Assembly (NCBI GenBank): GCA_000091205.1
Contig: AP006500.2
Reading direction: 5' to 3' (one strand)
Source of the DNA: Cyanidioschyzon merolae
Lineage: Eukaryota
DNA length: 64,000 nucleotides
This document shows positions 21,356 through 27,179 of this stretch, piece by piece (position 1 is the stretch's first letter; each line of letters starts with the position of its first letter). The position numbers and the translations under genes were made by a program. The notes beneath the pieces were generated by a model. It had not been told where the DNA came from, ran no database searches, and saw only the letters and a list, made by a program, of their open reading frames with translations.

Positions 21356-22474
21356 TCATCCTCCGATGGCGGTCATGGGACGATCGTTTTCGGTTCGCCT
21401 TGGAAGATCCCGCAGCGGATCACGTGCACCGCCATGTGCAAAGGCCTTGCGAGCGACAGCAGCATCGATCACTGCGTCGAGTTCCTGCCAGTCACCCCGC
21501 TGAATCAGATGCCGCAAACCGTATTCTGTTCGTCCAAAGAGACATGTTCGAAGATGCCCCGTTGCTGTCACGCGCAAACGATTGCAACCCGCGCAAAAGT
21601 GATTGCTCATTGAGGTAATGAAGCCCACTCGGAGCGCGGAGTCGCCGTCACCTCGATAAGCCCAGTATTTCGTCGTATCATGGGGATCGAGCGAGCGCTG
21701 CACCTGTTCCCGGGATTCGGGCTCGAATCGACCGCGGAGACGTTGGAGCATTTCGGCGTAGGGGACGAAGCGGTTTGATTCCCAGCCGTTGCCGCTAAAG
21801 GGCATGAACTCAATAAAGCGCACCGCCTGTAGCCGTCCGGGACGCAAAACGGTTTCCATACTCGCAAAGTATTCGCAGAAATCCAGTAACTCGTCATCAT
21901 TGATACCTCGCATGACAACGCAGTTCACCTTGACGTCTAGTCCCGCCTGAACGGCTCGGCGGATAGCTCGTAGGACTCGTGGGAGAAAAATTTCTCCAGA
22001 CCGACGAGTTAAAATTGTGAACCGCTCTGGCCGCAGTGTATCGAGCGATATGTTTACTGAGCGCATGCCACAACGCTGCAGAGTCGGCAGGTGTCGCTCC
22101 AGCAGCACCGCATTCGTCGTCATAGAGAGCGCTACCACAGGACTGCCGCCCGAACCAGTTCCCACGGCAGCATTCGTCGAAGATGCTGCACTCAGCGGTG
22201 CGAGTGCGTCCAACACCTGCTCTACGTCCTTGCGGACGAGCGGCTCGCCACCGGTCAGCCGCAGCTTGCGTATCCCTCGTTGCCGGACCAGGTGCTCCGC
22301 AAGAGCTGCTATCTCTGAAGCGGTAAGACACTCCGCCGAAGGTGCCAGGTTCGGCACACCCGTTGCTGGCATACAGTACTGACAGCGAAGATTGCATCTC
22401 TCTGTCAGTGATAATCGCAGGTAGTTGTGAACGCGGCCGAATGAGTCCGTTATAGGTCGCATGACAAGTGACAT
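21356..22474 (-). CDS. MOCS1: GTP 3',8-cyclase, molybdenum cofactor biosynthesis (MoaA / MOCS1A type, radical SAM), with no MoaC fusion
   Basis: YLRLSLTERCNLRCQYCMP (CxxxCxxC radical-SAM motif), a GGEPL-type region, and a C-terminal ...AIGG double glycine typical of MOCS1A. In-frame ATGs were verified at 22474 and 22462; the track starts at a GTG at 22507. Confidence 0.88.
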   Translation of the reverse strand: MSLVMRPITDSFGRVHNYLRLSLTERCNLRCQYCMPATGVPNLAPSAECLTASEIAALAEHLVRQRGIRKLRLTGGEPLVRKDVEQVLDALAPLSAASSTNAAVGTGSGGSPVVALSMTTNAVLLERHLPTLQRCGMRSVNISLDTLRPERFTILTRRSGEIFLPRVLRAIRRAVQAGLDVKVNCVVMRGINDDELLDFCEYFASMETVLRPGRLQAVRFIEFMPFSGNGWESNRFVPYAEMLQRLRGRFEPESREQVQRSLDPHDTTKYWAYRGDGDSALRVGFITSMSNHFCAGCNRLRVTATGHLRTCLFGRTEYGLRHLIQRGDWQELDAVIDAAVARKAFAHGGARDPLRDLPRRTENDRPMTAIGG

Positions 22475-24006
22475 TACTTGGAGCAAGGCCAACGCGCTCT
22501 CGAGCACACGATCAGGGGTGTCGATTCGCCCTACCTTTCGTGAGAGCAGCGTTCCGTATAAGCCCTGTGCAGAGACAGCGCTCCGGGTCGTTGCGGAGCC
22601 ACCGCGCCACGTTCGAAGCGGGGTGTCTGCTCGCTGCTCAGAAGGCGCAAGTCACTCGACTCCACGGGTACGCACTCCAGGTCTGCCCAGTGGTCGGACA
22701 ATTTGAGGTGCTCGACCCGAGCACCCCTATGAACTGCACGAAAGACGTGCAACTCCCTGCTATACTTGTTCTGAGCACCTTTTCTGTTGCAGAGCTTCGC
22801 ACGACTGGCGTCGGGGCTTTCGGAGCCAGCCGCAACGCTACCGGTGCCCGAGCCAGCGGCAATAGCGACGACGCTCTAGCGCAGGTTGCGCTCGTGCGCT
22901 TCCGAACAACTCCTGCATTTGCATTGGGTCACTGCTGAGGCGGTTCGGACGAGTGATATATCTGGGGACGGAAAGCTGCAACCATTCTTGTGACAGCCAG
23001 CACAGCGATAGTTTCGTCATGGGTATTGCGAGAGAGAGAACACGGGCGATTGACCTGGTGTGATGAAGAGTCTGCCGGTTTAGAGCCGTTTCTGTCTCCT
23101 GGTACCAGCGGACTGATCAACTCGAGAACACGCCGCATAGCAAGCAACGATAATTTCTGGTAGATCCCTCCATAGCGAGCGCATCGCTACCCGAACCTGC
23201 ACATTGGCTCGATGAGCACGCTGCACCGCGAGCGCTTGTATTGCCCAGCGGGTCGCACAAAGCACGCGAACATGTGCGGACAGCAACATGGAGACGCGCA
23301 CCTGCATGATTCTTGCGTGCCGCTGGTTACTCTGGCGACCTTGGATAATAGCAGCGAACCTCGGATGCGTATCCAGAGGGCATTTTTGGAACGCAAGGCT
23401 CGCAATGCGCATCACGCTTGTACGAGCATCTGCATTTATTTTGGGCAAGGCGCTCATCCTTCGGAATGCATCCTCAGCGTGCATCAGTGGGATCGCATGA
23501 GTACTTTTCACGGGTCTCTGGATGGCGTTTGAAAAGCCTGCTCCGTGGAACACGTTGTGGTCGACCCGCCGCTCTTGCGACGCCTACTGCGATGCGGCTC
23601 CAGCTGCAAGAGTGCAGCGCCGTGTGCATGTAGCGCATACCTGCAGGCTTTTCCGCGCACGAAGCCCACAGCGCTCGGCTCGCAGAGGCATGCTCACAAA
23701 TGCGATACAGCTAGCAGATATATCACATCTTCCGCTGAACGGAAACGCGTCAGCTAATGCCACGTGCCGAGTCAGGAAAACGCAGCGTGCGCTCAGACCC
23801 GTCTGTCTTTCAGGGCAGACTCGACACCTGGTAGAACCCACGACCTGATCGTTTGCTCTATGGCGACCTAGTCCTGGTCGCGGATAGACCCTGGAAGTAT
23901 GTTGCGGAATGATGGATGCTCTAACAGGTGCACCGAACAACCACCTGATGGGGGATGGCTCATTCGGGCGAAAAACCCATCGATCATAGAAGAAATTGCA
24001 GGCTAG

Positions 24007-24466
24007 ATGCCATTCTTTGCGGATGTTCGCAGCAGACTCGGCACACGATGCAACGCGCGAAACGACCAGAACATCGGAGAGGCAGCATGGGTCATGAGAC
24101 CTGAACATAAACCACAGAATAATGCCATTCTTTGCGGATGTTCGCAGCAGACTCGGCACACGATGCAACGCGCGAAACGACCAGAACATCGGAGAGGCAG
24201 CATGGGTCATGAGACCTGAACATAAACCACAGAATAATGCCATTCTTTGCGGATGTTCGCAGCAGACTCGGCACACGATGCAACGCGCGAAACGACCAGA
24301 ACATCGGAGAGGCAGCATGGGTCATGAGACCTGAACATAAACCACAGAATAATGCCATTCTTTGCGGATGTTCGCAGCAGACTCGGCACACGATGCAACG
24401 CGCGAAACGACCAGAACATCGGAGAGGCAGCATGGGTCATGAGACCTGAACATAAACTACAGAATA
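24007..24466. repeat. Minisatellite, 115-bp unit, 4 tandem copies
   Basis: Identical 70-aa ORFs start at 24007, 24122, 24237 and 24352 (period 115). The unit is atgccattctttgcggatgttcgcagcagactcggcacacgatgcaacgcgcgaaacgaccagaacatcggagaggcagcatgggtcatgagacctgaacataaaccacagaataa. Confidence 0.9.
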
Positions 24467-24714
24467 ATGGATGCTTTCCAGAACACCAAAATGCATCGCC
24501 TAATCTGGTATCCTTCGTCCTTGTAAATGTTCCGTTGAACAATTGAGCACACGTCATCCGTTCGTTGCCCGCGGAGGCGCCTCTCTCAAGGGCGGTGTGC
24601 GATCGCGAGGGCGTCACGCACGGCGCGGCTGCATGCGTGCGTTGCGTGCGCGCGCTCAGCCGAGTCTCTTGGGCAAGCGCTTGCCTAGCTGCCTGTTTGC
24701 GTCAAAGTAGGCTG

Positions 24715-25621
24715 ATGTACAGTCTAACGAAGCTCAGTCGGCAACTCTGGAAGTTGGAGAGAACTAGTGTGCGTTCCTTTTTCGTGGAACGGGCGTTTAC
24801 CCTGGGAACCCGAAGTACACGGGGTCGGTTGAGCACCAGTGCGTCGGTCTCGAGCAGTGCGCAACCAGCCACAGCAGCCGCAACGGCTCCGGAACCTCCC
24901 AAGCCACCGCCGAAACCAGACCACGTGCGTCTGAAGATTGATGGAAGAGAGGTGGAGGTTCCTCGGGCGAGCACAGTGATTCAAGCGTGTCAAGCTGCTG
25001 GCGTGAACATCCCTCACTTTTGCTACCACGAGCGGCTGTCTGTGGCTGGCAACTGCCGCATGTGCTTGGTTGAGGTTGAAAAGATGCCCAAGCTTGCAAT
25101 CAGTTGTGCGCTGCCCGTCATGGATGGCATGAGCATCATAACAGACTCGCCGCGGGTGAAGAAAAGCCGTGAGGCTGTGCTTGAGTTTTTGCTCAAGTCG
25201 CACCCGCTGGACTGTCCAATATGCGGTAAGTTTTCAGCACCGTCGAACTTTCAACTCAAGAAAAGAGCAAAATACTAACCGTTTCGACTTTATAGACCAA
25301 GGTGGCGAATGTCAACTACAAGAGCTAAGTATGGTGTTTGGTTCCGATCGAGGACGCTACTACGAGTACAAGCGCACCGTCGACGACAAGTACTGGGGCC
25401 CGCTCATCAAAACCGTCATGACGAGATGCATCCACTGTACGCGCTGCGTTCGTTTTGCCGAGGAGGTCGCAGGTGTTGCGGATATCGGCACCGCCGGACG
25501 TGGCGAATCGACCGAGATCACCATGTATTTGCCGGAAAAGTTCTTCCAATCGGAGCTCAGTGGCAACGTGATCGATTTATGTCCAGTTGGAGCACTTACT
25601 CGAAAGCGTTATGAGCATTGA
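24715..25621 (+). CDS. NADH:ubiquinone oxidoreductase 75-kDa subunit (NuoG/NDUFS1/Nad11) N-terminal Fe-S domain only. It has two exons (24715-25225 and 25296-25621) and a mitochondrial-type presequence.
   Basis: [62 protein letters not shown] (N1b 2Fe-2S), HPLDCPIC|DQGGECQLQ (the His/Cys cluster, split by the intron) and [10 protein letters not shown]...DLCPVGALT (N4) are all intact. Exon 1 ends ...ccaatatgcg, followed by gtaagt; the intron contains tactaac and ends tttatag. The codon g|ac restores D in ..CPICDQGGEC... Translation stops at ...[10 protein letters not shown]. Confidence 0.8.
25226..25295 (+). other. Spliceosomal intron (70 nt) of the NuoG-N-terminal-domain gene
   Basis: 5' GTAAGT, branch-point TACTAAC 17 nt upstream of the 3' TAG. 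Removal restores the conserved CPICDQGGEC motif in frame. Confidence 0.85.
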
Positions 25622-26333
25622 AAACGAATTTGGGCAAGACTTTTCAAAAATTGATGACGAACTCTATGCACTGATGAATGGAATATTCCGTTATCCCTGT
25701 CCGAGAGTGAAGATGAAACTCATTGCGGATACCTGATGGACTACCTGAGCACGGAGTTTGTATCTATACAGTATTTCATGACGTCCTATGATGAAGCGGA
25801 CCCAGACAAGTCCACTGAGATGCTTGGCTCTGCATGGAAGTCGCTGGTGAAAGCTCGATACGTGCCGCGATTCTCAAGTGCCGGCCGAAGATCAAGTCCA
25901 TGGTTTCATGCGCGCGTACGTGAATTCTCGGGTGTGTATGGAAGAATGCGGGTATGCATCGGCTACCGAATGCTCTGTGGCGCTTGCATTCGCGGCACTG
26001 TATCGTACACATCGTGATGTTGGTTAACAGCAACAACAACTCGCCCGAGAAATGACACTCCCTGAGACCCGGCTACCTGCGACTGCACATGGCGATGCGG
26101 TAACCAGTCAGCAGTGGAAATGGCAACCTCGAACATAAGAAAATTCGCAGTTTTCTTCCTATACTCCTGTCGAAGAACAAGCAGTGCGTGACTTCACAAG
26201 CTCGCAGCGCGCTGTGGTCAAGTCGCATACAGAACCCGACGCCGTGACACGCGGGCGGGCGATGGTCTCTGGTCGACCTCCAAAACATACCATCGCTCGA
26301 TAAAATTTTTTGGTTACTGCAAGAGACTCAGTG

Positions 26334-27179
26334 TCAGCTGGTCAACGTGGAGATTGGCCGATGTTTCGGACCATCCATCAGACCCAGCGGCTGCGAGACC
26401 GTCGATCCGTTTGGATTGACACTAGTCGCCCAAGTCGGGTGCAGTGCAAGCGGCCCGTCGGTGCCCGGAGCGCCCCGCGGTTCGCCCACCAGCGCAGGAC
26501 CTGGAGGCACCCACTTGCCGTTCTCCATTGCGGTCCACAGGGCAGATGCGTCACAAGGATACGCCAGTTGCGGGCTCGGTGTCACCGCCCTGGATCTCGG
26601 TGAAAGCGCACCAGTGGTTACTGTATCGCGAACAGTATCGACGTCATACTGAATCGCGACAAGAATGCGCCCAGCGAAGCGCCCGGCCCGTGCTCGACCT
26701 TTCTTCAGCGGATAGTGGAATGAATACCAAAGTTCACTCCGCCCGGAAGTGTCAAACTTTATCCGCGATAGCGGAATACGTACGCGACTAACGACTTCGG
26801 ACGTTTCCGTACAGCAGAATCCATGGCGCATTTCGCAAATATCGCAGACGATAACAAAATCAGGAAGCGTAAACGCGTTACATTGGCCGCTTTCGAGACA
26901 AAAGCGCTGCGGTCCACGACTCTTACGCCTGAACGTAACAACGTTTGTGGCGAACTCCGTTTCTTCGTTCATACGAAGCTGGAAGCTTGTATCTAGCCAC
27001 ACACGGACAAAGAGCCGACGGGGAAACATCCCGACTTCAACGTCACGAATCTCACGCACCGTGACGGACACGCTCGAACGCATACCATTTGGCGTGTAAA
27101 TCGTCTGTGCGAGCGACGGCGTCTCTCTGGAAAACTGCATCAGTTTTTCAAAACAATAGAATTGTCGTGACCTGTACAC
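26334..27179 (-). CDS. Hypothetical protein (possible C2-like beta-sandwich; weak)
   Basis: A 281-aa ORF with only loose resemblance to C2-domain spacing (..RRLFVRVWLD...ELWYSFHYP...GRILVAIQY). Start not verified. It could be partly spurious in this GC-rich DNA. Confidence 0.25.
   Translation of the reverse strand: MYRSRQFYCFEKLMQFSRETPSLAQTIYTPNGMRSSVSVTVREIRDVEVGMFPRRLFVRVWLDTSFQLRMNEETEFATNVVTFRRKSRGPQRFCLESGQCNAFTLPDFVIVCDICEMRHGFCCTETSEVVSRVRIPLSRIKFDTSGRSELWYSFHYPLKKGRARAGRFAGRILVAIQYDVDTVRDTVTTGALSPRSRAVTPSPQLAYPCDASALWTAMENGKWVPPGPALVGEPRGAPGTDGPLALHPTWATSVNPNGSTVSQPLGLMDGPKHRPISTLTS

Follow-up and report, generated by a model that had tools for sequence, protein, structure and literature searches.

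The gene at positions 24,715–25,621 (plus strand) of the window, the whole 64,000-nucleotide stretch of Cyanidioschyzon merolae DNA that was analysed, very probably encodes, as judged from sequence comparison, just the N-terminal half of NDUFS1 (Nad11/NuoG), the 75-kDa core subunit of mitochondrial complex I, split here between two nuclear genes. Few proteins of aerobic life are as conserved as the core subunits of this complex. The gene had already been annotated and this type of split was already known; what is new, insofar as no report was found, is the red-algal case with both halves nuclear, and it extends a known phenomenon without introducing a new mechanism. The coding sequence of this gene (hereafter designated the N-half) runs from the ATG at 24715 to the TGA at 25619–25621, contains one intron, and specifies a product of 278 aa, with the following features.

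24715..25225, plus strand: exon 1 (codons 1–170 and the first base of codon 171), carrying the presequence-like N-terminus, the [2Fe-2S] N1b domain, and the N5 ligands H163, C167, and C170
24715..24918, plus strand: N-terminal extension (aa 1–68), a putative mitochondrial presequence and then a Pro/Ala-rich linker
24922..25149, plus strand: 2Fe-2S ferredoxin-like domain (Pfam Fer2_4, aa 70–145, E 1.2e-20)
25226..25295, plus strand: spliceosomal intron (70 nt, phase 1) with a GTAAGT 5' splice site and a TAG 3' splice site
25273–25279, plus strand: branch site TACTAAC, inside the intron 25226..25295
25296..25621, plus strand: exon 2 (rest of codon 171 to codon 278, plus TGA), carrying C176 of N5, the entire N4 ferredoxin-like domain, and the boundary tail
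25397..25600, plus strand: Fer4_Nqo3 domain (aa 205–272, Pfam E 4.7e-32)
25589..25621, plus strand: boundary tail G269-ALTRKRYEH-278 and the stop codon, the N-half copy of the GALTSKPYAF strand

The intron splits codon 171 (G/AC, Asp), and the spliced product reads ...HPLDCPIC-DQGGECQLQ... (hyphen at the junction). Indeed, as the preliminary description had proposed from the GTAAGT, TACTAAC, and TAG signals, removal of the 70 nt rebuilds CPIC-DQGGEC in the spliced sequence, and only in this form is the N5 motif H-x3-C-x2-C-x5-C complete. The unspliced frame (ORF 24565..25278) terminates at an in-frame TAA (25276–25278) within the branch site, and the intron would have to be removed from the pre-mRNA to yield the 278-aa protein. 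The splice signals agree with GUAAGU / ACUAACC / AG, the intron consensus in the C. merolae group (bioRxiv 10.64898/2026.05.17.725761). A GenBank protein of C. merolae 10D (P0001, 'NADH dehydrogenase I iron-sulfur protein 75kDa subunit') agrees with the spliced product from end to end at 100% identity, showing that the gene model, intron included, is already in GenBank; the gene is located on chromosome 18 (1,253,087 bp; finished genome, PMC1955436).

The Pfam scan of the 278-aa product revealed three Fe-S domains, namely the two listed above and NADH-G_4Fe-4S_3 (aa 152–189, E 5e-15), and no match to PF00384 or PF09326 of the molybdopterin-like domain, in agreement with the earlier view of a stand-alone gene for the Fe-S N-domain only. 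All twelve ligands of the N1b cluster (C103, C114, C117, and C131) and of the two 4Fe-4S clusters, N5 (H163, C167, C170, and C176) and N4 (C215, C218, C221, and C266, the C-x2-C-x2-C ... C-P site), are present, as had been claimed, and the stop lies 12 residues after C266, matching the description of a protein that ends a few residues past the last cluster motif. Among solved structures, chains of mitochondrial NDUFS1 match best (E 6e-98 to 1e-86, query ~44–276), the match ending at chain residue ~236–255 of 690–750, and pairing by BLASTP with the full-length Chlorokybus NDUFS1 gave 68% identity. The 278-aa protein terminates at the boundary of the hydrogenase-like N-domain and the molybdoenzyme-like C-domain. 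At the other end, the extension precedes the region aligned with solved NDUFS1 structures (from aa 44–72 onward) and contains 9 K/R versus 2 D/E in its first 40 aa and 19 S/T in 68 aa; it is putatively a mitochondrial targeting sequence.

The C-terminal NuoG domain, for which a search elsewhere in the genome had been suggested, was found in C. merolae 10D. A library of representatives at 50% identity was queried with the C-domain segment of P0079, a relative of nearly full length, giving many 450–620-aa proteins that match from near their N-terminus, among them P0153 from the red alga Hildenbrandia rubra; with P0153 as the query, about 58 C-half proteins of 480–590 aa were found among the best 120 matches. 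The C. merolae protein (P0329, 565 aa) bears the product name 'NADH dehydrogenase I iron-sulfur protein 75kDa subunit' and is encoded by an uninterrupted (intronless) 1698-bp ORF on an 866,983-bp contig of chromosome-13 size, in a gene neighbourhood that differs from that of the N-half. It contains Fer4_NDSU1 (PF22151), Molybdopterin (PF00384), and NADH_dhqG_C (PF09326), and matches residues 228–714 of mouse NDUFS1 (E 1e-113). Its gene has its own ATG and its N-terminus reads MPALARTVLRTALSKVLHLHRERPLQHCRRF-GALTSKPYAFRARPWEL..., that is, a basic, presequence-like leader of 31 aa and then GALTSKPYAF. Among the best 120 matches to the N-half query and to the P0153 query, P0001 and P0329 were the only C. 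merolae proteins and no full-length NDUFS1 of this organism appeared; a typical full-length copy is expected to score above the cut-offs of both lists (319 and 427 bits). About 5.2–5.6 kb upstream of the C-half gene, C. merolae-type contigs carry a Complex1_LYR-family gene (122 aa; L003–L005). LYR proteins (NDUFA6/NDUFB9) are complex I subunits, and this proximity is probably a coincidence.

The same partition recurs across red algae. In 75 of the 120 best N-half matches listed, homology ends with CPVGA-x-T-x-K-x-Y-x-F, at the point where full-length proteins continue into the RPWEL motif. The red algae named among these N-half-type proteins are Cyanidiococcus, Porphyridium, Rhodosorus, Pyropia, Gracilariopsis, Gracilaria, Agarophyton, Timspurckia, Bangiopsis, and Purpureofilum, a short protein of the same length class occurring in every red-algal class sampled, and two glaucophytes, Cyanophora and Gloeochaete, belong to the set as well. 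C-half homologues were found in Cyanidiococcus, Cyanidium, Galdieria, Rhodosorus, Porphyridium, Timspurckia, Erythrolobus, Porphyra, and Agarophyton, and the two halves are paired in Cyanidiococcus, Rhodosorus, Porphyridium, Agarophyton, and Timspurckia, being not adjacent in Rhodosorus. Moreover, MMETSP data contain separate transcript ORFs marked 'type:complete' for the N-half (labelled Bangiopsis) and the C-half. The NDUFS1 of the green lineage (Chlorokybus and Chara) is full-length. Most non-cyanidialean N-halves bear a C-terminal low-complexity extension of ~55–70 aa (tails of P0008–P0089), and a CxC motif (CSCA, CGCS, CACA, and others) occurs in 38 of 76 N-half tails, ~25–35 residues past K-x-Y-x-F, Cyanophora included; the N-halves of Cyanidiales, the C. 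merolae gene among them, are without this extension.

As compared with canonical NDUFS1/NuoG of animals, fungi, green plants, and alphaproteobacteria, which is a single polypeptide of about 690–750 aa, the ligand motifs are identical and the two red-algal halves cover the entire protein. Thus, mouse NDUFS1 is tiled by the N-half (32–236) and the C-half (228–714), and Chlorokybus NDUFS1 by 44–250 and 243–714, with an overlap of 8–9 residues that corresponds to the boundary strand GALT-K-Y-F (mouse residues 228–236), copied in both halves. GALTSKPYAF is invariant in the 58 red-algal C-halves and mostly preceded by R-A-V, which would fit an R-3 presequence cleavage site. In the 75 N-halves only G, A, T, K (93%), Y/F (100%), and F (92%) are kept, the positions between them varying, and the C. 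merolae strand end RKRYEH is degenerate relative to SKPYAF. The presence of the strand in both halves suggests that they arose as overlapping partial copies and not by a clean cut, and the duplicated strand may be a docking element. One further C-half protein, P0133, retains a Cys-less vestige of the N4 region.

The preliminary description had left two readings side by side, a split subunit with its C-half encoded elsewhere and a repurposed small Fe-S protein. The latter, for example a soluble electron carrier, with some other protein supplying N1b, N4, and N5 to complex I, is very improbable. Stand-alone homologues of the module do exist, such as the 242-aa subunit of the NAD-reducing hydrogenase (5xf9_B, E 3e-24), but that subunit scores 89 bits as against 331 bits for mitochondrial NDUFS1, and a HoxU-type stand-alone diaphorase Fe-S subunit was rejected on the same comparison. 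Furthermore, no other C. merolae copy of the N-domain appeared among the matches listed, so that complex I would miss three obligatory clusters; a conserved C-half starts exactly where the N-half ends; and the pairing of the two halves is the same across red algae. The split-subunit reading is upheld by the C-half in the same genome, by the co-occurrence of the halves in red algae, and by the purifying selection on the N-half described below.

The orthologue of Cyanidiococcus yangmingshanensis (L002) has an 84-nt intron at the identical codon, in which GTAAGT, ACTAACC, and TAG are conserved and the intron body is diverged, and its stop codon aligns with the C. merolae TGA. Introns of Rhodosorus lie at positions differing from that of the C. 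merolae N-half, indicating that the latter intron is not pan-rhodophyte. The GenBank model of the Cyanidiococcus protein (P0003) is without residues DQ of CPIC-DQGGEC. The motif is complete if the intron is ended at the TAG at L002 4490, the homologue of the acceptor used in C. merolae; the annotation probably misplaces this acceptor by 6 nt.

Around the N-half gene, tblastn of the whole 64-kb window on both strands, with four NuoG-type proteins reaching into the C-domain, the full-length Chlorokybus NDUFS1, and the C. merolae C-half as queries, detected no coding for the NuoG C-domain in the 24 kb upstream and 38 kb downstream of the gene, in line with the earlier remark that the downstream DNA is devoid of NuoG-like coding potential; no downstream exon was found. 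A likeness of 'KRIW' just past the stop to '..RPWE' (tblastn alignment extending to 25633) was dismissed as chance, the stretch being not conserved in Cyanidiococcus. These observations bear on a second alternative, in which one full-length 75-kDa protein is made by trans-splicing of the two loci or through an overlooked exon. C. merolae introns are few and some have been missed in annotation (bioRxiv 10.64898/2026.05.17.725761), which lends this alternative some plausibility, but we regard it as highly improbable: the position of the in-frame TGA is conserved in Cyanidiococcus, the C-half has its own ATG and basic presequence, any fusion would repeat the duplicated GALT...F segment, the MMETSP ORFs for the two halves are separate and complete, and the flanks are empty of C-domain coding.

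Between C. merolae and Cyanidiococcus, the N-half shows a dN of 0.07, a dS of 1.02, and a dN/dS of 0.068 over 243 aligned codons, values by which the gene is judged to be under strong purifying selection; together with the shared intron and stop positions, they bear out the earlier interpretation as a functional gene rather than a dead fragment. A decaying remnant, that is, a pseudogene truncated after loss or relocation of NDUFS1, would account for the truncation relative to canonical NDUFS1 and for the degenerate RKRYEH but deserves hardly any credence in view of this ratio at a dS of about 1, the 12 of 12 intact ligands, the conserved intron signals, and the orthologues of the same length class in all red-algal classes sampled.

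The downstream DNA had also been described as AT-richer UTR. Its G+C content is slightly lower (0.51 versus 0.53–0.57 in the exons), as stated, but it is not featureless, for it contains a C/D-box snoRNA-like element at 25663–25755 (plus strand), 42 nt past the N-half stop, with a Cyanidiococcus counterpart at L002 4856–4949. The element has a box C (UGAUGA), a 12-nt antisense element GUUAUCCCUGUC, a D' box, a degenerate C' box, a box D (CUGA), and a terminal stem, and it aligns end-to-end with Rfam snoR38 at 31.2 bits in C. merolae (E 0.002) and 32.1 bits in Cyanidiococcus (E 0.001), both below the gathering score of 45. It is the sole conserved block in a 3' flank otherwise diverged between the two species; the first UAAA poly(A) signal past the stop is at 26301, and the element may therefore sit within the 3' UTR. 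On the 5' side, a tandem repeat of a 115-bp unit (24007–24469; 4.0 copies, 99% identity) ends ~245 bp before the start codon, and no counterpart was found in the compared part of Cyanidiococcus L002 (from 3901, ~100 bp upstream of the annotated start). Farther upstream lies a MoaA-like radical-SAM molybdenum-cofactor gene (21356–22507, minus strand), found likewise upstream of the N-half in Cyanidiococcus (L002 1671–2777, minus strand), indicating conserved local synteny. Downstream, a 281-aa ORF (26334–27179, minus strand) gave no Pfam match.

If the N-half and C-half together constitute NDUFS1, the two precursors would be imported into mitochondria separately, and the C-half would probably be cleaved just before GALT, at R-A-V/GALT, as the R-3 processing motif suggests. 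The N-half would bind N1b, N4, and N5 and then join NDUFV1/V2 in the N-module, where, by established complex I biochemistry, it would carry electrons on their way from FMN towards N6a. The C-half, a domain that is cofactor-less in mitochondrial enzymes, would dock non-covalently as a scaffold. By estimate, the mature products would measure roughly 23 kDa (N-half, about 210 aa) and roughly 59 kDa (C-half, about 534 aa). A split at the domain boundary would thus leave every NDUFS1 cluster of the FMN-to-quinone wire on one small polypeptide.

Splits of nad11 at the domain boundary arose at least four times in stramenopiles, being known from eustigmatophytes, the PX clade/brown algae, some diatoms, and bicosoecids/labyrinthulids, and the halves are presumed to assemble post-translationally (PMC4824035). 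The N-half of eustigmatophytes is nuclear, as is the C-half of Ectocarpus, which has a transit peptide (PMC4824035). In every described stramenopile case, however, at least one half is still in the mtDNA (PMC4824035), whereas both are nuclear in red algae; and eustigmatophyte N-halves are reportedly without an obvious presequence (PMC4824035), in contrast to the basic 68-aa extension of the C. merolae N-half. Euglenozoa likewise have nuclear genes for the N-terminal Fe-S part of NDUFS1: N-terminal-only nuclear NDUFS1 is known in trypanosomatids and diplonemids (PMC12699882), and in Euglena gracilis NDUFS1A and NDUFS1B are two separate polypeptides in the cryo-EM complex (PDB 8iuf; PMC10884005), a structure showing that a split NDUFS1 is compatible with a working enzyme. 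The Euglena break differs in lying further downstream, inside the Rossmann-like subdomain II, with an NDUFS1A of 385 aa; the N-half match to 8iuf_1A ends at residue 261 of 385, so that the red-algal break is ~120 residues earlier, at the domain boundary. According to PMC12699882, the C-part in Euglena resembles NDUFS1 little in sequence, unlike the red-algal C-half, which by its match to mouse is a bona fide NDUFS1 C-domain. A nuclear N-half, which the preliminary description had considered unusual, has been recorded before, in eustigmatophytes (PMC4824035) and in Euglenozoa (PMC12699882, PMC10884005), and is less unusual than claimed, although its red-algal occurrence stands as a case without a report found. 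In 2024, the authors of the Euglena structure wrote that no split hydrophilic core subunit had been reported in eukaryotes (PMC10884005). No description of the red-algal NDUFS1 split was found in the full-text literature searched, a scope outside which many subscription papers fall and beyond which a mention in surveys of complex I composition is possible.

In a neighbor-joining (NJ) tree, the red-algal C-halves form one clade with 100% bootstrap, within which Cyanidiophyceae are split from the rest, indicating that the fission predates the extant red-algal radiation. Rhodophyte mtDNAs are without nad11 (PMC5910586, PMC4226036), and a gene named nad11 is kept in glaucophyte mtDNAs (PMC7194472). 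The mitochondrial nad11 of Cyanophora (P0247 / AIU44702.1; 482 aa, beginning MGALTSKPYAF) and that of Gloeochaete (P0160 / YP_009092459.1; 495 aa) each encode the C-half only, and nuclear N-halves with presequence-like leaders occur in both (P0089 and P0052), an arrangement not mentioned in the paper describing those mitogenomes. The position of the break is shared with red algae, the nuclear N-half ending at the same K-x-Y-x-F position and the C-half starting with GALTSKPYAF; the difference is that the glaucophyte C-half is still a mitochondrial nad11, AT-rich and lacking a presequence, so that the arrangement appears to be of the eustigmatophyte type. The NJ tree gave no support for a clade of red-algal and glaucophyte C-halves, its deeper nodes being unsupported, and the glaucophyte mitochondrial sequences group with that of Reclinomonas, possibly as a compositional artefact. 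One may tentatively envisage an old stepwise fission shared with glaucophytes, in which the N-half became nuclear first, leaving a C-half-only nad11 in the mtDNA as in Cyanophora and Gloeochaete, and the C-half became nuclear in the red-algal stem, the boundary strand being a functional docking element and not a relic; taken as a whole, we consider this scenario rather unlikely. Further C-half-only proteins with presequence-like leaders were noticed (P0184, from the amoebozoan Phalansterium solitarium, P0162, P0194, P0223, and P0133), as were further N-half-only proteins with K/Q/N-rich tails (P0064, P0075, P0088, P0083, P0084, P0116, and P0119). Fission of NDUFS1 at the domain boundary may be more widespread than published.

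For annotation, the two C. merolae half-genes carry a warning in that they share one product name, with nothing to mark either as a half. Red algae would represent a whole ancient phylum whose NDUFS1 comes from two nuclear genes and is cut exactly at the domain boundary, with glaucophytes appearing to hold an intermediate state of the split; a fission shared by the two groups, if true, would provide a rare genomic character for relationships within Archaeplastida. The red-algal split would also be a case in which both products need separate import and assembly, and a natural experiment on the need for a covalent link to the cofactor-less C-domain, for which C. merolae, a genetically tractable and thermophilic organism, lends itself to biochemical tests.
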